Of a stretch of DNA of 53,151 nt, positions 26,210 to 36,720 are shown in pieces (positions within the stretch are counted from its first letter, which is position 1; each line of letters begins with the position of its first letter). This DNA is from Candidatus Thorarchaeota archaeon SMTZ1-45 (GTDB taxonomy: Archaea > Asgardarchaeota > Thorarchaeia > Thorarchaeales > Thorarchaeaceae): contig LRSL01000037.1 in NCBI GenBank assembly GCA_001563335.1, positions 1 through 53,151 of the forward strand. Reading direction: 5' to 3'. The notes under the pieces are model-generated. The model saw only the letters and a program-made list of their open reading frames with translations, ran no database searches and was not told where the DNA came from. A program made the position numbers and the translations under genes.

Positions 26210-26304
26210 TTACAATTTCATAATGTATCCTTTTAATAATGATTACTAGGTATGTTAGACTGCACCGTAAGAGGCATAAGAACCAAATTTGATTGCATCT
26301 TGAG

Positions 26305-27351
26305 ATGAGAGAAGCTGCACTTTATTCCAACCTGAAGAACGGAATCCGCTGTGATCTTTGTGCACGACGATGTGTGATTCACGATGATGAAACAGGTTTT
26401 TGTCGAGTTCGAACTGCAAAAGATGGCAAATTATACTCAATTGTCTATGGACTTATAGACGGTATGGCTGCTGATCCAATTGAAAAAAAGCCCCTCTTTC
26501 ATTTTGCACCGGGTAGTAGTACTTTTTCAATTAGTACCTCTTCGTGCAATTTTAGATGCCAGTTCTGTTTGAACTATCACTCAGCACATCGAGAAACCCC
26601 GGTTGGTCAACAACTCACCCCTCAGGACATTGTGTCTCTCGCCCAGAAATATGGTTGCGGTGGAATAACATATACTTACACAGAACCTACAGTGTTCATT
26701 GAATTGGCACATGATACAGCAGAGATAGCTCACAATAAAGGTATGTTCAACACTTTCGTCACAAATGGCTATATGACTCGTGAGGCTATTGACTACATTG
26801 CTCCCTATCTAGATGCAGCGTCTATCAACTTCAAGGGGAGTGCCAATAAGAAGTTCTACAAGGAACTAATGTCTGTCCCAAAGGTTGAACCGATTTTCGA
26901 TGCTATGCTAAGAATGAAGGAAAAAGGTATCTTCATTGAAATTACTAATTTGATAATACCTAAGGTCGGAGACTCTTTGGAGGATTCCAGTACTCTTGCA
27001 AGGTGGGTTGTGAATAATCTTGGTGAGAAAACACAATTTCATCTAACAGCATTCTCTCCAACCTATAAGATGACTCATCTCCCTCGTACATCTGCAGCAA
27101 CCCTTGAAGCTCATATCAATGTAGCAAAAGATGCTGGGCTTGTTTATGTATATTCGGGCAATATCGCTGGTCATGACTATGAAAACACATACTGTCCTGA
27201 TTGTGGGTATAGAGCAGTCGAGCGTTATTCGGTTTATCTCAGTAAAAACAACTTAAATGAGGAAGGTCTCTGTCCAAAATGCAAGACTGATTTGAATATC
27301 GCTGGAGTCAAATGGATGGTTCTAGGAAAGGGGCAATTCAAGCTTTTTTGA
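26305..27351 (+). CDS. amrS: AmmeMemoRadiSam system radical SAM enzyme
   Basis: CDLCARRC, DPIEKKPLFHF, CNFRCQFC, YTYTEP, VTNGY, EITNL, YSGN and TYCPDCG. Confidence 0.92.
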   Translation: MREAALYSNLKNGIRCDLCARRCVIHDDETGFCRVRTAKDGKLYSIVYGLIDGMAADPIEKKPLFHFAPGSSTFSISTSSCNFRCQFCLNYHSAHRETPVGQQLTPQDIVSLAQKYGCGGITYTYTEPTVFIELAHDTAEIAHNKGMFNTFVTNGYMTREAIDYIAPYLDAASINFKGSANKKFYKELMSVPKVEPIFDAMLRMKEKGIFIEITNLIIPKVGDSLEDSSTLARWVVNNLGEKTQFHLTAFSPTYKMTHLPRTSAATLEAHINVAKDAGLVYVYSGNIAGHDYENTYCPDCGYRAVERYSVYLSKNNLNEEGLCPKCKTDLNIAGVKWMVLGKGQFKLF

Positions 27352-27355
27352 GGGA

Positions 27356-28255
27356 ATGAATTTGTTAATAGTAGATGTTGCTTGGAGAGAATTGGATGAT
27401 TCAACCTATGAATCTGGACTTCAAGTCTGGAGAGAGGGAGTGGAAACACTCGACTTTCTACCAGTACCTCCTGGAAAGCATCTTAATTGGTCATTCAGAG
27501 GTCCCAAACATTGTATTGGTAGTGTAGACGCATCAGGTAAGTATGTAAAGTGTCCTGAGAACTCCACCATTCTTCGTCAGGGAATGCGTTGCGGTCCTTG
27601 TGCTGCTATAGATTTCTATGATCCTTGTATCCGCTGTGATGGCCGAAACTGCCTAGCTACTGAAGCAAGAAAGACACAATGTGACATGTCAGATTATGCA
27701 TTGTATATTGTTGTTTTCAGTGACTTAACACTAAAGGTGGGAGTTTCATCAATGAAGAGAGTACGACTTCGATGGATTGAGCAGGGTGCTGATTTTGGAG
27801 GAATAATAAAAACCATCACCGGAGGACGTAAAGCAAGACGCTTAGAAGATCGAATTGGCAAACGTACAGATGTAACTAAGATGGTTAGAAGTGAGAGGAA
27901 AATTAGGAGCCTTCAAGATAGTCTTGGTATCGAAACCGCTCAAAAAATCGTTGATGACTTCATAGTTGGAGTTACAAGCATCGAATTAGGAACTAAGGTA
28001 AAACTGGAAGACCTATCTAAGTATTATTCATTTCCTTCACTAGATGTTAAACCAATACCTTGGAGGCAAAGATCTGACCCAATTGACCAACGCCCACTTG
28101 TCGGTGATGTTGTTGGAATGAAAGGATCACTCCTTCTAACTAGCATTGGCAGTTCATTTATAGTCACAGATTTGAAACAAGTTATTGGGTATAGCTTGGA
28201 TGGTGATGCAGATATTACCATGGTAACACAGAGTGGGCTCATGGATTTCTTCTAA
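27356..28255 (+). CDS. DUF2797-like Cys-rich protein
   Basis: N-terminal Cys cluster; LKVGVS...RWIEQGA and A..LE motifs; G.VVGMKG. Confidence 0.75.
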   Translation: MNLLIVDVAWRELDDSTYESGLQVWREGVETLDFLPVPPGKHLNWSFRGPKHCIGSVDASGKYVKCPENSTILRQGMRCGPCAAIDFYDPCIRCDGRNCLATEARKTQCDMSDYALYIVVFSDLTLKVGVSSMKRVRLRWIEQGADFGGIIKTITGGRKARRLEDRIGKRTDVTKMVRSERKIRSLQDSLGIETAQKIVDDFIVGVTSIELGTKVKLEDLSKYYSFPSLDVKPIPWRQRSDPIDQRPLVGDVVGMKGSLLLTSIGSSFIVTDLKQVIGYSLDGDADITMVTQSGLMDFF

Positions 28256-28290
28256 CAACCTTATTTAGGGTAGCAGTCAGTCGATAATTT

Positions 28291-29166
28291 GTGAACGCAA
28301 CAGCTGTGACAAAAGCGGAAGTCCGCTATCTCTCTCTTGTTAGAAAAGAAGGGGGAGAACCAATTATTGGCATTCCATATAGACCTATGTCTGTTGACCC
28401 AGACTTAGTCGCCAGTTTCGTTCTAGCAGTTATTATTTTTGAGAATAGACAGCTGAAGACATTTGTGAAAGAGGGCTATGTAGTTGTTATTGAAGAAGGT
28501 GCGTATGTTGTAGGTCTCCTCATTGTTGACAAAGTTGATGACGATGAACCATATCGCCAAAATCTAATCAAAATCGTTGAAAAATTCGAAGCGAATTATG
28601 AGTCATTACTTACATCATGGAAAGGCGATATTCGACCATTCCGTGAATATGCTTTGGATATTCTTCAAGTATATCCATACAGAACCTTTGACCTGAAAAT
28701 GATTCCTCGATTGGTAAGTAAATCAGAAGCCACTCCTGATTATCAGGCAATCATCCCATGGAGTGTAGGAACGACTGATGAAAAGCTTCAGACTGTTCTT
28801 GGTTATATCAACGGAAAACGTACTATTGAGGAAATAATGCAACAGTCAGAATTTGAAGACTCTGAGATTATGGCAATAATGTCAATGCTTGATAAATACA
28901 AATGGATTACACTGATACGACGTCTTGAGGATAATTCAATCCTTATCAAAATTAATGATCCGCCTATGGTCTTACTTGGCGTTTATGGTGATCAACTGAC
29001 CAAACTTGTTGAGTTATGTGATGGCACAAGAACATTATCTGAAATTTGTGAGCTTTTGCCATTCAACATGGAAGCTGTTAAGACAGTGGCAAATCGTCTA
29101 ATTGATGCAGGCGTGTTGAGTTATGTGGATACTTCCTCAATAGTAGAAAGAAAAATGGAGGTCTAA
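28291..29166 (+). CDS. Longin-like N-terminal domain plus tandem winged-helix protein (NPRL2/NPRL3-like), paralogue A
   Basis: Longin-like pattern (LSLVRKEGG..I, DPDLVASFVLAV, WKGDIRPF); YINGKRTIEEI...LDKYKWI and CDGTRTLSEI...LIDAGVL wHTH units. Confidence 0.6.
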   Translation: MNATAVTKAEVRYLSLVRKEGGEPIIGIPYRPMSVDPDLVASFVLAVIIFENRQLKTFVKEGYVVVIEEGAYVVGLLIVDKVDDDEPYRQNLIKIVEKFEANYESLLTSWKGDIRPFREYALDILQVYPYRTFDLKMIPRLVSKSEATPDYQAIIPWSVGTTDEKLQTVLGYINGKRTIEEIMQQSEFEDSEIMAIMSMLDKYKWITLIRRLEDNSILIKINDPPMVLLGVYGDQLTKLVELCDGTRTLSEICELLPFNMEAVKTVANRLIDAGVLSYVDTSSIVERKMEV

Positions 29167-29170
29167 GAAT

Positions 29171-29998
29171 TTGGCTTTGGATGTTTCGAAAGTACGGTAT
29201 ATCTCCCTTATCCGTATGGAGGGTGGTGAATCCGTACTAAACATACCTTATGCCGAGCTCACGGTTGACCCTGATCTGATAGCTGGATTTGTAACAGCAG
29301 TCATCATATTTGCCAAGACTCCTATTAGAACTATTAGGAAAGCTGCTTATGATATTCTTATCGAGGTGGGGGAAACTGTGTTAGTCTTACTCGTTGTGGA
29401 CCCAGTTCCTGACGAAGTTCCATACCGGGAAAAGTTGAAACGTATCCTCGTACTTGTGGAAAGTGAACATGGAGATAAGCTGAAACATTTCGAGGGAGAT
29501 ATTCGACGCTTCAGAGAATTTGCATTAGACATCGTGAAAGAGTTCCCATTCTCATCTGTTGACTTGGATCTTGTTCCTATTATGAAAGAGAAAGGTGTTC
29601 GAATTCCTTTCAGAGTTGGATCTGTCGACCATGATCTCGAACAGATTGAATCTTTCATTAATGGAAAGCGTACTGTGGCTGAAATCATGGACCTCATTGG
29701 ATTTTCCGATGACAAAGCCCTAGCATTAATTTCAATACTTGATAGATATCAATGGATTGATTTCAAAACACGTCTTACAGACGATGATATTCTTGTCCGA
29801 GGGCACTGTCCTGAGATGAAACTTGGAATTCTAAAATCTCAGTATGGAAAGCCACTAGAAGATATCCTTGAGAAATTTGACGGCACAATGAAAATCAAGG
29901 ATGTAGCTGAATCACTTCCGTATGACCAACGTGCGTTATGGTTCTTAATCAACAAGCTTGTAGAGGTTGGGTGTCTCTCTGTAAAGAAATCTCGCTAA
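29171..29998 (+). CDS. Longin-like N-terminal domain plus tandem winged-helix protein (NPRL2/NPRL3-like), paralogue B
   Basis: Colinear with paralogue A: ISLIRMEGG, DPDLIAGFVTAV, FEGDIRRF, FINGKRTVAEI, FDGTMKIKDV...LVEVGCL. Confidence 0.6.
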   Translation: MALDVSKVRYISLIRMEGGESVLNIPYAELTVDPDLIAGFVTAVIIFAKTPIRTIRKAAYDILIEVGETVLVLLVVDPVPDEVPYREKLKRILVLVESEHGDKLKHFEGDIRRFREFALDIVKEFPFSSVDLDLVPIMKEKGVRIPFRVGSVDHDLEQIESFINGKRTVAEIMDLIGFSDDKALALISILDRYQWIDFKTRLTDDDILVRGHCPEMKLGILKSQYGKPLEDILEKFDGTMKIKDVAESLPYDQRALWFLINKLVEVGCLSVKKSR

Positions 29999-30828: not shown

Positions 30829-31221
30829 TCATAGCGCCTTATGGAGTATCTTCCTTGCTTCTCTAGCTGTCTTTTTAGCGTCACTGAAAATCAACCCAAG
30901 TTTGGCATTTTCTGGAGCTGTGATAGTAAGAAGATAATCAGCTGAGATTGAAATCACAAGTGTTGTTCCAAGATCTCCTTGAATTATGATGGACTTGAGT
31001 TCACCTTGTCTGAGTGCTTTGACAGTTTGATCTCCAGCTGCATGGATGGCTGCAACGATAGCTGCAACTGAAGCCTCCTCAGTTCCTCCATGAAATCTAC
31101 TTGCAAATGGAAGGCCTTCGATGGAAAACACAGCAGCACCAAGAATAGGTGACTTGTTTGTGAGTTCCTTTAGGAGATCACTAAGGGTTTCCTGTATTTT
31201 CATAACTTGTTGGTCCTCCAA
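30829..31221 (-). CDS. Roadblock/LC7 (MglB/LAMTOR-like) domain protein
   Basis: GAAVFSIEGLP.AS, A.VAA, GEL.SIIIQGD.G and AKLGLIF pattern. Confidence 0.9.
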   Translation of the reverse strand: MEDQQVMKIQETLSDLLKELTNKSPILGAAVFSIEGLPFASRFHGGTEEASVAAIVAAIHAAGDQTVKALRQGELKSIIIQGDLGTTLVISISADYLLTITAPENAKLGLIFSDAKKTAREARKILHKAL

Positions 31222-31340: not shown

Positions 31341-32345
31341 TCACTCAATTAATCTTACAGACGTCACTTTGTCACTATGAAGTGATGCTGTAGGAAGTTT
31401 CATGACCCTCAGAACATTGTCTGCTTCCTCATCAAGACCTGCACTTTTCAAAAGGTCGATGAACTCAAAGCCAGTTGTGATAATCAATCCCTTGACAGGT
31501 TTTCCTATCTTCATGGATTCTAGGAGTTCTTCTACTGACCATATTCTACACCTCATATCAAGGTCACTTTGCTTCTCAAGATGAGTGATGCCTTTCCTTG
31601 CTATCCCTCTATTCTCTCTTTGTTCGATGGTATAAGCACGACGTCTATTGATTCGCTTCAACCTCGATAATCCATTATTGATAACATCCTTTGAGCTAAC
31701 CATTTTTCCATACAAGTCTTTGACACTTTTTGTTGTACTAGTGACTAACCATGCAGTCCCATAAATTGCTTGGTAACGCATTCCTTTGAGCACTTCAGAT
31801 TCACTGAGGAGTGTTATGGACCTGTATCCTTTGTACTCAACTGATATTAACCAGTTCTGGTCTTTGTTCTCAACTATGAGATCTGGTGTAAGACCTTCAC
31901 CTGTTGATGGAACACTTGTCGTGACACCAGGAAATAGGCGCATGATAAGTGCTTGAAATGCCTCATGGAATATATTGTGTCTTAGATTCCTTGCTTCCTG
32001 AGGATGTCGTAGTCCAGCCTCACGGTATAGTACTGGCATCTCTGCTTTCTTGCCAGTCTTCGCCTTGACTTCGCTCTTGGTTGTCAACCTCCCCTTTGCA
32101 TAATTCTGTTTAACAAGAATTATTGCAGCTTCGTTACTGATAAGTTCAAAGACTATCTTACCTAAATCTGACTCTTTCTCCTCTGGATTCTTAGCGATTC
32201 GTCGTTTTGCTTCAGTATATGCCCAATCAATGACACTCTGAGCTTCTTCACCAAGTATTGAGGTGATTGAGTTCAATTTGTCATTCAGTGTGTATCTTCT
32301 TACGTATTTTTTCAGTGCTGTTCCAATGATCAATTTTCTAGACAA
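31341..32345 (-). CDS. Putative PD-(D/E)XK restriction-endonuclease-fold protein
   Basis: HE helix, then TPDLIVE...SVEYKG, followed by EV.K..RY and WLVT. Confidence 0.55.
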   Translation of the reverse strand: MSRKLIIGTALKKYVRRYTLNDKLNSITSILGEEAQSVIDWAYTEAKRRIAKNPEEKESDLGKIVFELISNEAAIILVKQNYAKGRLTTKSEVKAKTGKKAEMPVLYREAGLRHPQEARNLRHNIFHEAFQALIMRLFPGVTTSVPSTGEGLTPDLIVENKDQNWLISVEYKGYRSITLLSESEVLKGMRYQAIYGTAWLVTSTTKSVKDLYGKMVSSKDVINNGLSRLKRINRRRAYTIEQRENRGIARKGITHLEKQSDLDMRCRIWSVEELLESMKIGKPVKGLIITTGFEFIDLLKSAGLDEEADNVLRVMKLPTASLHSDKVTSVRLIE

Positions 32346-32369
32346 TAGGTATCTCTCTCTTCGCTCAGG

Positions 32370-33050
32370 TCACTTAGCTCTTCTAAGGATGTCCCTTGTG
32401 AGCTCTACCTCTTGGGTATTCTCATCATAGGATACTAAATCTGCTGCAGCTAAATCATGTACAGCTTTGAGAACAGCTGCTGGTTGAATTCCAGTACTTG
32501 ATGTTATGTTCTTCCTTGTTATAGAAGTCTTTACATCGTGTAGAGTGTATAATATTCTGGCATGAGGTTTTCCATAGAAAACGGTCTCGATGAGTGTTAT
32601 GTAAATAGCCAAAAGATCACTAACATCCACCTTTTCCTGTAAGGCTTCTTTTTCAGCTGATGCTTCCCTATAGAGTTCTGAAACTCTTGAAAGCTGCTCA
32701 TTGATTTCATCCATCTCTTTTCGAAGTTCATCTCTCTCTCTTCGAAGCGTTTCTTCCGCCTCGCTTTTGGACGCCTCTGCCTCCTCTGCTTTGGCACTTA
32801 ATTCTCCAATCTCTTCCTTTACAGTTGCAAGATCAGCTTTGGCTTTATCTCTGTCTTTCTCAGCTTTCTCAAGCTTAGTGGTGAGCTCCTTGATTTGTTC
32901 TTCAAGAGCCAGAGCACGTTCCTCAGCCTCCTTTCTTGCTGTCTTAATTTCGTCTGCTTCACTGCTTAGGCTCTCTCGTTCATCCATCAGTTTTACGATG
33001 GAGTCCTTAAACTCATCCAATAGTTCAAGCATCTTTTCCCTATCGGTCAT
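32370..33050 (-). CDS. Coiled-coil protein with C-terminal winged HTH
   Basis: About 140 aa of heptads, then KPHARILYTLH...ITRKNITSSTGIQPAAVLKAVHDL...LVSYD. Confidence 0.75.
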   Translation of the reverse strand: MTDREKMLELLDEFKDSIVKLMDERESLSSEADEIKTARKEAEERALALEEQIKELTTKLEKAEKDRDKAKADLATVKEEIGELSAKAEEAEASKSEAEETLRRERDELRKEMDEINEQLSRVSELYREASAEKEALQEKVDVSDLLAIYITLIETVFYGKPHARILYTLHDVKTSITRKNITSSTGIQPAAVLKAVHDLAAADLVSYDENTQEVELTRDILRRAK

Positions 33051-33085
33051 TAGATACTCCTCACTTGCAGTGAGCGCAACCTGCT

Positions 33086-34231
33086 TTATATCAGTTTCAC
33101 ATCATACTCATTTGACTTTGTTTTTAGATATTTAATATACATCTTCTTCAGTTCAACGAGAGGGTATCCAAATGCTTTGAAAGCCTCAAGTTCTCCCTTC
33201 TTCCTTCTTTTCAAGATGGATTCATTTTGCTTGTTCAGATAGGGATCTTGACTTAATGAAGGGATGTTTCTGTTTTGCTGAGCACATTTTATGTCTGCTT
33301 TTGTCATTGACTCTAATGTGTGCTCGATTCTAGAAAGCATGCTATTTCTTCCCCAGAAATCCTCTGTCGAAAGACCTGCATATTTTGCCTGTGGAGTTGC
33401 GAGCCCTTGAATATTTGCAAGTTCAATTGAATTGTTCTTGATTGTAGAGAAAATTCTCAGAGACCATGGACTCATATCAACCAGGACGAGAACTGGTACT
33501 TCATTATCTGCTAAGCGTCTTATCCATGCTCTCATATTTCTACCAGGTTGTCCAAAAAGAGCCCCTATACCAATTCTAAGGCGCTCTGCTAAACCAAGTT
33601 CGATTAGATTCCTTGCCATAGCCTCTTTCTCAACAAACAAAGCTGCATCCACGTTTATGTCATGAATTTCAACATCAAATGGTCTTGATGAGATGAACCA
33701 TCCATATTCACCTGCAGAATTACAGTTCAATCTCTTCCCAGATAAATCTGATAGAGTCACATCTCCATAGAATGTTCCTTTTGGTGAACTCACAACACCA
33801 AATTCTTCTCGAGGAATAGATGCTCCTCCTTGTCTTATGATCCTCTCACAAAGGTGGATCAACCTATTAGTTTCTGATTGGTTTGAAATCTTCATGACTT
33901 TTTGTACATGCTTAACTTTGTGCAAATAGTAAAAATCTCTCAAACTCATCGAGAGTCCCTGTTCTAGATGCTCTTTAAACTGAGTAAGTCCATAGACAAG
34001 ACTAGCTATTGTCTTCGCACTTTCAACTTTTCGACCGTCTATGAATGAAGCATTATCGTCAACTGGTATGTATCCCCTTGTTTCATTATAATTGACATTC
34101 TTCTTAGATGAACCGAAATAACCAATTTCAGGAAACTCACCATCATCTATCGTTTCAGCAATCGTTTCCAAAACATTATCAATCAGACTCAGAACCTTGG
34201 TATTTGCTGTATTCATTGAGGTATCATTCAT
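33086..34231 (-). CDS. top6A: DNA topoisomerase VI subunit A / Spo11-like protein (divergent)
   Basis: SLRDFYY (catalytic Tyr), G.FYGD, VEKEA (Toprim Glu), GQP.R..R, D-M-S-PW (DxD variant) and KGELEA. Confidence 0.85.
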   Translation of the reverse strand: MNDTSMNTANTKVLSLIDNVLETIAETIDDGEFPEIGYFGSSKKNVNYNETRGYIPVDDNASFIDGRKVESAKTIASLVYGLTQFKEHLEQGLSMSLRDFYYLHKVKHVQKVMKISNQSETNRLIHLCERIIRQGGASIPREEFGVVSSPKGTFYGDVTLSDLSGKRLNCNSAGEYGWFISSRPFDVEIHDINVDAALFVEKEAMARNLIELGLAERLRIGIGALFGQPGRNMRAWIRRLADNEVPVLVLVDMSPWSLRIFSTIKNNSIELANIQGLATPQAKYAGLSTEDFWGRNSMLSRIEHTLESMTKADIKCAQQNRNIPSLSQDPYLNKQNESILKRRKKGELEAFKAFGYPLVELKKMYIKYLKTKSNEYDVKLI

Positions 34232-35768
34232 TCAGACCACCTCTTCCAGAATCAAACAGAATTGAAATGGAAACATGTCTTTTCAAAGCTGATGAGAGTA
34301 TTTCTGCCATGAATGTATAATACTCGGTGAGTCGATTCTCTCTCTTCCTCTTTTTATACACTCTATCGCGCCTTCTGATCTTTTCTCCAATTTCTCTTAG
34401 ACAATCCTTGAACCCGAGTTCAATCTCTTTTCTGACAATATCTACGTCAGCTATGTACTCCTTGCCCACTGTCTTGTACGGGACCTTGGTGGAGCAAATA
34501 TGTATAACAAATGCAATGGGATCTTCTTGACGAAGTCCATAGTTCTTCAGATTCAGATTTCTTACAACCCTATAGGTCACATCAGACCGCTCATCATAGA
34601 GAAGAGGAATTCGGTTTGCGAATCGATAGACATTGATCCCAGGGTCTAGACTTCCACCATATGCTACACCAGTTTCAACTATGAATGGATGTCCCTCGTG
34701 AACATTTGGTGATCTTTGTTTGAATACAGAAAAATCAGGTGAGAGCCTTTGTATGCCTGCAGACAATACATCAATTCCCGCAGGTGAAAGTGACTTTGAT
34801 GATGGTGGAAGAAACTTTTCAAAAACTGCAAGTTTATTCATTAGAGTGACTAGTTCATCCTGTCCCAAAACTAATGGATTCTCATCAGGATTCATATTTG
34901 AATATGCAAGGAACTCTTCTGCAATTGAATTTCCAACACGTTGGAACGAGTTCTTCATAAACGCCTTCATGGTTCGTGCTCTTGTTGAATTAGTCATCTT
35001 CTTGAGTAATTCCACATCGATTCCACGTGGGTGTGGTTTCATCTCTCGTGGAGCGACAGGGAGCTTGTCAATCAGTCGATTATATGTCAATATCTGACCA
35101 TCAGGAGTGTCAAACAGAAGCGATGCGTAAGGAACTATAATCGCAGTCTTAGTGAAATAATCTATGATTCTTTTTTTACTCCTTACCCAATCCCCTTGAA
35201 GTTTATATGAAACCATAGTTCCTTTTTCATGAGGCGACTTCGAAATTTTCTCTTCATAGAGAATTTCAGGCTGGTTTGTTTCAATATCTAATTTCATCAC
35301 GATTTTGTGGCCATGTTTCTCACCATCTCTACCCGTAACCACTTCGATTGGCTCTTGTGTGGTGACTTGTCCATAAAGGAGCGCTAAACTACCTCCCAGA
35401 CCAAATGTTCCTCTATTTTGTTTGAGAGTAAATTTTGTGCCAGTAAGCATTTTCCCAATTAAAACTGGAATTGCCTCTTTTTTCATACCTTTTCCATTAT
35501 CTTTTACAACAAGCTCAAAGATTTCAGGTCCAACATTTAGGATATCTGTATCATCATTTGGTTCTTCTTCTCTTTTTAGAAATACACTGACTTCGGGCAA
35601 GACACGTTCTTCTTCACAAGCATCAAGGCTGTTTTCTACTAGTTCACGAATTGACACGTATAATGAGCGAGCAGGATTATCAAACCCAGCGATCGTACGA
35701 TTTCTATAGAACCAAGCTGACACTGAAAGTTCTGTAATTTCTGAACTGAATCTATTAGTCGTGAGCAC
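34224..35768 (-). CDS. top6B: DNA topoisomerase VI subunit B
   Basis: GHKL motifs ELVENSLDA, DNGKG, RGTFGLG and GT; PHPRG; H2TH region; RFANRIPLLY; KVPYKTVGKE. Confidence 0.95.
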   Translation of the reverse strand: MLTTNRFSSEITELSVSAWFYRNRTIAGFDNPARSLYVSIRELVENSLDACEEERVLPEVSVFLKREEEPNDDTDILNVGPEIFELVVKDNGKGMKKEAIPVLIGKMLTGTKFTLKQNRGTFGLGGSLALLYGQVTTQEPIEVVTGRDGEKHGHKIVMKLDIETNQPEILYEEKISKSPHEKGTMVSYKLQGDWVRSKKRIIDYFTKTAIIVPYASLLFDTPDGQILTYNRLIDKLPVAPREMKPHPRGIDVELLKKMTNSTRARTMKAFMKNSFQRVGNSIAEEFLAYSNMNPDENPLVLGQDELVTLMNKLAVFEKFLPPSSKSLSPAGIDVLSAGIQRLSPDFSVFKQRSPNVHEGHPFIVETGVAYGGSLDPGINVYRFANRIPLLYDERSDVTYRVVRNLNLKNYGLRQEDPIAFVIHICSTKVPYKTVGKEYIADVDIVRKEIELGFKDCLREIGEKIRRRDRVYKKRKRENRLTEYYTFMAEILSSALKRHVSISILFDSGRGGLNE

Positions 35769-35832: not shown

Positions 35833-36720
35833 TCACGCAACACTATAATCAACTAGTATTGGAAAGATTAGATAACCAAATATCAGCATAAACAGGAGTC
35901 CTAGAGTTTGAGCTATCCACACTCTATTATTCCAGTATCTAACCGTTGCTCCATCAAATGGTTGAAATGGAATCATATTGAATAAACCCAGAAACGCATT
36001 TAGTTGGATACCATATCGAAGCAGAAATCCAATTGCTATAATTGGAATCTTACCCAATGCCAGTATCATAGAAATTATCGCCAATGCTGTTGCAATTGCA
36101 AAATTCGTCAAAGGTCCAGCTAGATTCGATTTTCCATTTTGTTCTACATTGGATGTTCCACTGGTATAGACTACACCTGTGCCAAATATTGGCAATGAGA
36201 AAAGAATCGCCATTGCTGAGAGATAGTATCCCATTGCAGTCATTCTGAACTCTGACCACATACCATAACTCTGTGATACGAATTTATGAGCCATTTCATG
36301 TGCCATGAAGGATCCAAGAAATATAACAATGGTACCAACAATTACCCACAACAATCCCTCGCTGACAAGAAAACCAATTACAGTAATTGCATTGAATATG
36401 CCCAAGGGACTTCCAAAGATGGAGATGCCCACAAGAACTACTAGTACCGAAGCAATTGCAAGATCACGAATCTCAGTAGATGAGAAGCGCTTACGTCTTG
36501 TTCGTTTCTTTTTCAATCTGCGAGTGGGTTGAAATTGGTTTTCATCTGGTTCTTGAACTCTAAATGAATCAGATACCTTTCTTCGTGCATCCTCACGAAC
36601 TTTATGCATTGCAGGACAACCATGACTCTCTGGTAATCTATGTTCTGAACAATAGACGGTGTTACAATAGGGACAAGTAAATCCCAAATCATCAGCACCG
36701 CATAGAGAACATGTTGTCAT
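35833..36720 (-). CDS. AN1-type zinc finger fused to an M50 (site-2) intramembrane metalloprotease
   Basis: CSLC...FTCPYC..VYCSEHRLPESHGC; HEMAH, AGP and FNMIPFQPFDG. Confidence 0.88.
   Translation of the reverse strand: MTTCSLCGADDLGFTCPYCNTVYCSEHRLPESHGCPAMHKVREDARRKVSDSFRVQEPDENQFQPTRRLKKKRTRRKRFSSTEIRDLAIASVLVVLVGISIFGSPLGIFNAITVIGFLVSEGLLWVIVGTIVIFLGSFMAHEMAHKFVSQSYGMWSEFRMTAMGYYLSAMAILFSLPIFGTGVVYTSGTSNVEQNGKSNLAGPLTNFAIATALAIISMILALGKIPIIAIGFLLRYGIQLNAFLGLFNMIPFQPFDGATVRYWNNRVWIAQTLGLLFMLIFGYLIFPILVDYSVA

Follow-up and report, generated by a model that had tools for sequence, protein, structure and literature searches.

Spo11, the enzyme that makes meiotic breaks, descends from topoisomerase VI (Topo VI), and eukaryotes have their closest prokaryotic relatives in the Asgard archaea; extra copies of Topo VI in Asgard genomes therefore draw attention. 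The copy described here is the Top6B/Top6A pair encoded at positions 33086-35768 (minus strand) of contig LRSL01000037.1 (contig C37) of Candidatus Thorarchaeota archaeon SMTZ1-45 (assembly GCA_001563335.1). The window is the whole stretch of DNA that was analysed, 53,151 nt. According to the accessible text of a 2025 paper (PMC12680538), a second Top6A is present in various Asgard clades and a third one in Thorarchaeia, and the extra copies were inferred to be horizontal in origin from approximately unbiased (AU) tests; its table gives three Top6A and three Top6B for Thorarchaeia. The third Thorarchaeia pair is thus already in print, and the paralogy itself is not new. As far as that text goes, the C37 pair is the same pair, with the A and B genes side by side, three such pairs in a genome and a long branch outside the conserved Asgard/eukaryote-like clade. 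The searchable text (figures and FigShare files fall outside it) does not contain 'Toprim', 'catalytic tyrosine' or 'synten', and three features reported below were not found in it: the D-x-S motif, the constant neighbours and the orthology with the one Topo VI of Atabeyarchaeia.

We judge it reasonably probable (about 0.6) that 33086-35768 encodes a third Top6B/Top6A pair that is an active variant topoisomerase, lying next to an independent adaptor-plus-nuclease module. The pair would most likely work as an A2B2, ATP-dependent type IIB topoisomerase, as an extra decatenase or relaxase, and is orthologous to the only Topo VI of Atabeyarchaeia. It is flanked on one side by an M50-peptidase gene and on the other by an older cluster, specific to Thorarchaeia, of coiled-coil/winged helix-turn-helix (wHTH), nuclease and Roadblock genes. 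One transcript probably spans the pair and the coiled-coil and nuclease genes, the products of which may form a separate module, a DNA-binding adaptor plus a nuclease, acting on chromosomal DNA. The genes concerned are as follows.

34224..35768, minus strand: Top6B, third paralogue (514 aa; GHKL ATPase and transducer), GTG start; PF09239, NF003218
33086..34231, minus strand: Top6A, third paralogue (381 aa; 5Y-CAP and Toprim, D-M-S replacing DxD); PF21180, PF04406
32370..33050, minus strand: protein with predicted coiled coil and C-terminal winged helix-turn-helix (226 aa), from an AlphaFold2 (AF2) model
31341..32345, minus strand: PD-(D/E)XK (restriction-endonuclease-fold) protein (334 aa), TTG start, N-terminal helical domain at about residues 1-110; from motifs and an AF2 model
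30829..31221, minus strand: Roadblock/LC7 protein (130 aa), downstream of the nuclease gene; PF03259 at 1.2e-12
35833..36720, minus strand: zf-AN1 and M50-type peptidase gene, upstream border of the Topo VI site; PF01428, PF02163

The top6B and top6A genes overlap by 8 bp (34224-34231). Gaps of 35 bp (33051-33085) and 24 bp (32346-32369) separate top6A from the 226-aa gene and the latter from the 334-aa gene, and the starts of both downstream genes are preceded by purine-rich, ribosome-binding-site-like stretches. An earlier note on this DNA, made from its letters alone, had placed these four genes on one strand with the same overlap and gaps, all of which match the open reading frame (ORF) coordinates. 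The Roadblock/LC7 gene, which follows the nuclease gene after a 119-bp AT-rich gap, is a fifth, equally conserved neighbour that had been left out of this four-gene set.

Top6A passed the Pfam domain cut-offs for PF21180 (83.4 bits; cut-off 24.1) and PF04406 (26.6 bits; cut-off 26). It scored below all seven NCBIfam models matched, the best being the Top6A equivalog NF003335 (265 bits against 424), and is therefore truly divergent; the drift from the archaeal consensus that had been read from the letters is borne out by these scores. Residues were assigned by alignment to M. mazei Top6A (residues 20-359, 80.7 bits), and their roles were taken from the accessible text of PMC13040014. The clasp arginine (M. 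mazei Arg102) corresponds to Arg98, the catalytic tyrosine (Tyr106) to Tyr102 in the string R98-D-F-Y-Y102, the Toprim glutamate (Glu202) to Glu201, the first aspartate of DxD (Asp254) to Asp252 and the clasp glutamate (Glu342) to Glu347. The second aspartate of DxD (Asp256) corresponds to Ser254, the sole change among the catalytic residues compared. The catalytic tyrosine of the 5Y-CAP domain, with its preceding arginine, is thus present, and the Toprim pattern of a glutamate plus DxD is broken at one residue. Apart from the second aspartate, each residue compared is unchanged in Top6A and in all 120 orthologues among the matches listed (69-91% identical), and each of these 120 reads D-[ML]-S-P-W-S; the Atabeyarchaeia orthologues read D-L-S (3/3). 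The two other Top6A proteins of the genome, on contigs C92 and C101, retain DxD. As read from these alignments, the Toprim domain is a variant with E + D-x-S in place of E + D-x-D, fixed across the clade. The D-x-S Top6A is called a variant since an accepted family member, plant SPO11-2, deviates at the same place, its Toprim being naturally DxN in the accessible text of PMC11302465. A literature search, conducted on text with figures and external data files outside its reach, found no paper on a Topo VI D-x-S motif or on these neighbour genes.

In the M. mazei cleavage complex, as described in the available part of PMC13040014, the carboxylates of Glu202 and Asp256 lie about 4 Å from the metal and a water bridge is possible. 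Taken with the DxN of SPO11-2, this means that the second Toprim aspartate may be replaceable. It could also be that its loss has crippled the third Top6A and left a non-cleaving DNA-binding or regulatory subunit, for example in mixed dimers like plant SPO11-1/SPO11-2. The S. pombe mutant Rec12-D231A (second Asp to Ala) is null for breaks in the portion of the literature available, and a second-Asp mutation in E. coli topo I impairs DNA binding (accessible text of PMC11302465); the two DxD-bearing paralogues in the same genome and the scores below all NCBIfam equivalog cut-offs also fit such a loss. We nevertheless consider it decidedly unlikely, given the invariance of the five other residues in the 120 listed orthologues, an own intact Top6B partner with ATPase motifs, ten Thorarchaeia genomes that carry the third copy without the C101-type copy (copy 2) and, in three Atabeyarchaeia genomes, the same D-x-S protein as the only Top6A.

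The last of these points came from a scan with the alignment of the third Top6A, which returned 59 loci: 56 Thorarchaeota-type records (under varied submitter labels) and three labelled Atabeyarchaeia or related, at 58-61% identity. The Atabeyarchaeia genomes G317, G046 and G047 have exactly one Top6A, of the D-L-S type, and one Top6B each. A GyrA/ParC-family search that gave matches in 12 control genomes gave none in these three, and the PMC12680538 table, in the part accessible, has one Top6A, one Top6B and no gyrase for an Atabeyarchaeia genome. In these three genomes the D-x-S enzyme is the sole type II topoisomerase found; most likely it therefore works as a topoisomerase and does not make breaks in the manner of Spo11. 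The adjacency of top6A and top6B is kept in the related loci and in Atabeyarchaeia, which supports the A2B2 pairing. No coiled-coil, nuclease or M50 gene was seen in the flanks of the three Atabeyarchaeia Top6A loci, and the nuclease profile gave no match in the three genomes.

A Top6A tree was built by a quick search from 47 rows, with no euryarchaeal or eukaryotic rows among them. Eight copy-3 rows and the single Top6A of a single-contig genome (G036) formed one clade with a Shimodaira-Hasegawa-like approximate likelihood-ratio test (SH-aLRT) support of 100 and a stem of 4.89 changes per column; the phylogeny proposed as a check in the earlier note thus places the copy-3 Top6A on a very long branch. 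Copy 2 of Top6A grouped with Bathyarchaeia and Nitrososphaeria sequences at about 50% identity, in agreement with the text of PMC12680538 that was accessible.

An orphan Top6A-like protein of 320 aa was seen in two other genomes (L085 6718-7680 in G026 and L087 1972-2934 in G037), with a stem of 4.91. It reads D-A-T at the DxD place and, by eye, has no glutamate at the expected Toprim position; its flanks list no large Top6B-like ORF (no homology search was made there). Going by these residues, it is possibly a non-catalytic Top6A derivative.

Top6B matched Topo-VIb_trans (PF09239) at 1.1e-49 (168.7 bits) and NF003218 at 531 bits (cut-off 274), the latter over residues 5-497. All Bergerat-fold ATP-binding motifs and a transducer domain with its switch lysine were found. 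The N box (Glu42/Asn46/Asp49) is conserved in 37/37 Thor orthologues; G1 (Asp90-x-Gly92-x-Gly94), G2 (Gly120/Gly123/Gly125) and the switch lysine Lys436 are each conserved in 36/37, the exception being one gapped row. The N, G1 and G2 motifs and the switch lysine are all present in 3/3 Atabeyarchaeia orthologues. The WKxY motif reads L-K-N-Y, with Leu407 at the Trp position. Both statements of the earlier note on this subunit, that it is intact and that WKxY has become LKNY, agree with the full-length NF003218 match, the retained ATPase motifs and the L-K-N-Y reading. The Trp position is Leu in 35 and Met in 1 of the 37 Thor orthologues, with the basic residue and Tyr mostly retained, and Trp in 3/3 Atabeyarchaeia orthologues. 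The canonical-looking Top6B of C101 reads W-S-R-Y, so the motif is loose in the Thorarchaeia lineage. The WKxY mutants in the accessible text of PMC5922973 altered the basic residues, not the Trp.

The genome examined (3.54 Mb in 119 contigs, 87.7% complete, 5.8% contamination) contains three Top6A and three Top6B matches, which form three A/B pairs on contigs C37, C92 and C101. The C37 pair (Top6B 514 aa, Top6A 381 aa) lies upstream of the coiled-coil and nuclease genes. The C92 pair consists of a 672-aa Top6B and a 743-aa Top6A with a Lys-rich, helix-hairpin-helix N-terminal arm, and the C101 pair (508 and 350 aa) adjoins KH-domain, Rio-kinase-like and eIF1A-like genes, named by eye from their translations. 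Pairwise identities are 23-28% among the three Top6A and 22-35% among the three Top6B. The search for a second, canonical top6A/B suggested in the earlier note therefore found two further pairs, which makes the C37 pair an extra Topo VI, and the informational-gene context of the C101 pair fits a C37 copy that is not the sole Topo VI. Contamination as a source of the three pairs was ruled out, the tetranucleotide correlation of C37, C92 and C101 with the genome being 0.97-0.99; recurrence in the genus and the PMC12680538 table also counter it. The 24 other genomes of the genus gave two to four Top6A matches each, three in most, and the homologues in public records are labelled Thorarchaeota.

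Across 87 genomes of the order, copies 2 and 3 occur together in 49, copy 3 only in 10, copy 2 only in 26 and neither in 2. An either/or relation between copies 2 and 3 was rejected (two genomes with neither against about four expected by chance); the two genomes with neither are 62-65% complete.

Several side observations concern these copies. The C92 pair (L007 6333-10579) is the conserved Asgard-type Topo VI of the genome; its Lys-rich N-terminal Top6A arm has about 390 residues and two HhH_5 domains, and a gene that by eye from its translation is RadA-like lies about 3.7 kb downstream. In genome G042 a copy-2-type Top6B (L249 3752-5107) is 51% identical to the C101 Top6B over residues 2-453, and no copy-2 Top6A was found in the 9 kb read or in the genome; copies 1 and 3 are still present in it, and its copy-2 pair seems to be in decay. 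Genome G010 (7% contamination) has two nuclease genes, with products 85% and 69% identical to the 334-aa protein, and two third Top6A, on contigs C44 and C229; these double copies are probably two strains binned together and not a duplication. The GyrA/ParC family gave no match in the SMTZ1-45 genome or in the other genomes of the genus tested, except for one of 402 bits in G024 (contig C269, 7923-9038), which could be foreign given the 7% contamination of that genome.

The surroundings of the third pair were compared in 60 related loci that carry the nuclease gene, 54 of which were evaluable for the presence of Topo VI; the other six end too early to tell. Top6B, Top6A, coiled-coil and nuclease genes follow in this order in 44 loci. 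The M50 gene lies directly before the coiled-coil gene, without Topo VI, in nine, and the sister-family locus L082 has neither M50 nor Topo VI, so that the coiled-coil and nuclease genes are intact without Topo VI in 10/54 evaluable loci. The four-gene order, the conservation of which had been put forward for checking, is accordingly a recurrent one (44/54). Beside the coiled-coil gene in L063 and L070 is a 69-aa ORF that matches the last 59 residues of Top6A; Topo VI was therefore secondarily deleted there. The presence and absence of Topo VI on the nuclease tree need at least six changes, and four genomes with pair-less loci have no third Topo VI copy anywhere. The nuclease was found in 66/76 family genomes and in 1/1 sister-family genome, nearly always as one match per genome, and the third Top6A in 58/85 family genomes and 0/1 sister-family genome. 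The Roadblock gene adjoins the nuclease gene in 59/60 loci, the sister-family L082 included; the only locus without it, L070, ends about 100 bp past the nuclease gene. The zf-AN1/M50-type gene is a conserved neighbour of the cluster across the family.

The adjacency of the third pair to the downstream genes is thus conserved and not obligate. The cluster persists without the pair and so does not need it, nor does the pair, in Atabeyarchaeia, need the cluster. A single insertion between the M50 and coiled-coil genes, followed by repeated loss, explains the pattern.

A different reading takes the four or five genes as one machine, in which Topo VI would cut or gate DNA, the coiled-coil/wHTH protein would tether or regulate it and the nuclease would process ends or junctions, in a programmed-break, segregation or repair system analogous to Spo11 and its accessory factors; coiled-coil Mer2/IHO1 are accessory proteins of this kind. 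It draws on the invariant order in 44 loci and C37, on the 8-bp overlap, the short gaps and the ribosome-binding-site-like stretches, on a third copy never seen elsewhere in the Thorarchaeia genomes searched (the apparent exception, G059, is a contig break), and on the metal-site variant and the Trp-to-Leu change of Top6B, which could mark altered cleavage control. The downstream genes are, however, intact after at least one proven deletion of Topo VI, that of the relics, as in all 10 pair-less loci, and also in the sister family in which no third copy was found; Atabeyarchaeia use this type of Topo VI without them, and the Pfam and NCBIfam scans showed no homologue of a known accessory protein of Spo11 or Topo VI. 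We regard one machine as unlikely. Its more specific form seems quite unlikely: that Thorarchaeia have enlisted the D-x-S Topo VI for a dedicated machine that breaks DNA or handles chromosomes, in which the coiled-coil/wHTH protein would position the enzyme and the nuclease process the cut DNA, with the weak metal site and the altered Top6B loop favouring cleavage, as a counterpart of the Spo11 system of independent origin. A functional link between the third pair and the downstream genes may exist in a facultative form.

The same evidence divides the earlier note. Its divergent extra Topo VI in a conserved four-gene order holds; its Spo11-like break machine finds no support, since the D-x-S type is the only Top6A/B found in three Atabeyarchaeia genomes, which have no such neighbours, and the coiled-coil and nuclease genes stand without Topo VI in ten loci, in two of them beside a remnant of Top6A, and also in the sister family. 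When it compared the locus with the accessory factors of eukaryotic Spo11, it drew no more than an analogy; the 226-aa protein has only sub-threshold, generic coiled-coil hits.

Some points weigh against an active topoisomerase beside an independent module. We infer the activity of the third pair from its residues and distribution, and the null phenotype of Rec12-D231A means that the activity of a D-x-S enzyme is not to be taken for granted. Type IA topoisomerases could cover part of the decatenation in Atabeyarchaeia, which softens the step from 'sole type II' to 'active'. Whenever a locus has the third pair, the coiled-coil gene follows immediately downstream of it (44/44 loci and C37), and in further genomes the placement is on the same contig or compatible with a contig break. 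Such constancy, with the very short gaps, agrees with functional coupling no less than with a single insertion. Finally, the Top6A tree puts the copy-3 clade next to the conserved Asgard copy (SH-aLRT 96; both stems very long), a kind of placement that an AU test in the accessible text of PMC12680538 rejects (P = 2e-17).

The AF2 model of the 226-aa protein (predicted local distance difference test, pLDDT, 82) has one helix over residues 3-140. Its C-terminal part (162-217) contains helices 162-173, 179-186 and 190-202 and strands 206-209 and 214-217, with a block pLDDT of 79-86. The protein is predicted from this model to be a long coiled coil followed by a winged helix-turn-helix with a beta wing, which supports the coiled-coil/wHTH label it had been given at the outset. 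None of the Pfam wHTH models matched it, and Pfam and NCBIfam gave generic coiled-coil hits only, all sub-threshold. Conservation is found in the N-terminal 25 residues and the C-terminal half; of 292 relatives, the 120 listed are 78-95% identical to it over the C-terminal 97 aa, and wherever an organism is named for them the label is Asgard, mostly Thorarchaeota. A complex prediction for Top6A and the nuclease with the 226-aa protein as partner scored 0.00 in the absence of control runs and has no bearing either way. At the far end of the sister-family cluster, L021 166-1614 encodes a 482-aa protein that by eye has the design of the 226-aa protein, with a long coiled coil and, at its end, a helix-turn-helix-like segment.

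The 334-aa protein gave no Pfam or NCBIfam hit at E <= 0.01; HSDR_N_2, Hjc and Mrr_cat of Pfam appeared only at E of 0.01-0.1, in one to four of 18 family members. It has 217 close relatives, the few with organism names being labelled Thorarchaeota or another Asgard group, and only 12 representative clusters among 1.84 billion proteins. Glu117, Pro154-Asp155 and Glu170-x-Lys172 are invariant across 18 nuclease sequences, down to 26% identity. The AF2 model (pLDDT 87, predicted template modelling score, pTM, 0.76) has an alpha-beta-beta-beta-alpha-beta core formed by helix 115-137, strands 142-144, 156-160 and 165-172, helix 182-195 and strand 197-202. Its best structural match was AF1548 (1y88; Z 9.2 over 126 residues, root-mean-square deviation 3.3); next came the nuclease domains of LlaBIII, AspBHI, Can2, McrC and FokI (Z 6.5-7.4). 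Foldseek gave no row at E <= 0.001, the top rows being restriction enzymes, McrC and Hjc, and a sequence search against solved structures gave chance-level rows only. The ESM Atlas leads (PDDEXK_3 on 54% of one cluster, MunI) are consistent with the fold and were not used as evidence. On its fold and invariant catalytic residues, which uphold the PD-(D/E)XK label of the earlier note, the protein is a new, Thorarchaeia-restricted sequence family of known PD-(D/E)XK fold and a predicted nuclease.

A restriction-endonuclease fold next to a Topo VI raises the possibility that the cluster is a defence or mobile island, in which a Topo VI-like nuclease module akin to Wadjet or Gabija would be combined with a restriction-type nuclease; a published abstract has Top6 homologues as the nuclease part of some bacterial defence systems. 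The PADLOC-DB models gave no match for Top6A, Top6B, the nuclease or the Roadblock protein, and for the 226-aa protein gave only coiled-coil matches amounting to noise (such as JetC and LmuB, at E 3e-6 or weaker). Among the Pfam hits of the other ORFs in the window, none looked like an integrase or transposase. The flanks on C37 carry housekeeping-type genes (Cdc48, HisF/H-like, oxidoreductases and glycan synthesis), and the region has an even GC content throughout; the nuclease, moreover, is near-universal in the family (66/76), at about one per genome and in a fixed chromosomal place. A mobile or defence island, and with it the defence role that had also been suggested for this locus, is thus highly improbable.

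At the upstream border, the product of 35833..36720 matched the AN1 zinc finger PF01428 at 4e-09 and the M50 family PF02163 at 4.2e-06 (26.7 bits, just below the cut-off of 27.2), an AN1 finger fused to a membrane domain. A sigma-70 promoter scan gave 14 promoter-like sites against 17.5 expected from shuffles, and a terminator scan nine terminator-like sites against 4.8 expected (standard deviation 3.0), which is near the shuffle level; both models are unsuited to archaea. On the plus strand at 26293-29998 lie genes for a radical-SAM protein and a DUF2797 protein, together with a tandem pair of paralogues of 291 and 275 aa, only the first of which has wHTH hits, just below the Pfam cut-offs. 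This group is head-to-head with the Roadblock, nuclease and coiled-coil trio and also occurs in the sister family, in which L021 has the same set with a single 275-aa homologue; the group and the trio may be one larger conserved neighbourhood.

The third Thorarchaeia copy, whose clade supplies Atabeyarchaeia with their only Topo VI, is a poor candidate for a proto-Spo11. It does offer a natural experiment on the Toprim metal site, with Ser for the second Asp throughout a clade while Ala at that place kills Rec12. The locus further defines a new order-restricted PD-(D/E)XK family with a constant coiled-coil/wHTH partner; both may have a part in Asgard chromosome biology.

Among known systems, the third pair has the two-subunit design of M. 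mazei Topo VI (2q2e, 9o8p and 9o0g; accessible text of PMC13040014 and PMC5922973), with equivalents of Tyr106, Arg102, Glu202, Asp254 and Glu342, the GHKL motifs and the switch lysine; it differs in Ser254 for Asp256 and in Leu for the Trp of the Top6B WKxY motif. With plant SPO11-2 (PMC11302465, as far as accessible), which still functions with its DxN, it has in common a natural, conserved replacement of the second Asp, whereas the third Top6A has Ser in place of Asn, is archaeal, has its own complete Top6B and gives no sign of a break-only role or of heterodimers. With the Spo11 partners Rec102/Rec104/Ski8 and plant RHL1/BIN4 (accessible text of PMC9665070) only the idea is common, that of a type IIB cutter with a coiled-coil protein; no sequence similarity was detected, and the archaeal neighbours and Topo VI occur separately. 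The predicted nuclease has the core fold (Z 9.2 to 6.5) and the D...(D/E)xK layout in common with AF1548 (1y88) and the Mrr/type IV-like nuclease domains (LlaBIII, AspBHI, McrC, FokI and Can2), but it belongs to no curated sequence family, has its own 110-residue N-terminal helical domain and is confined to a single archaeal order.

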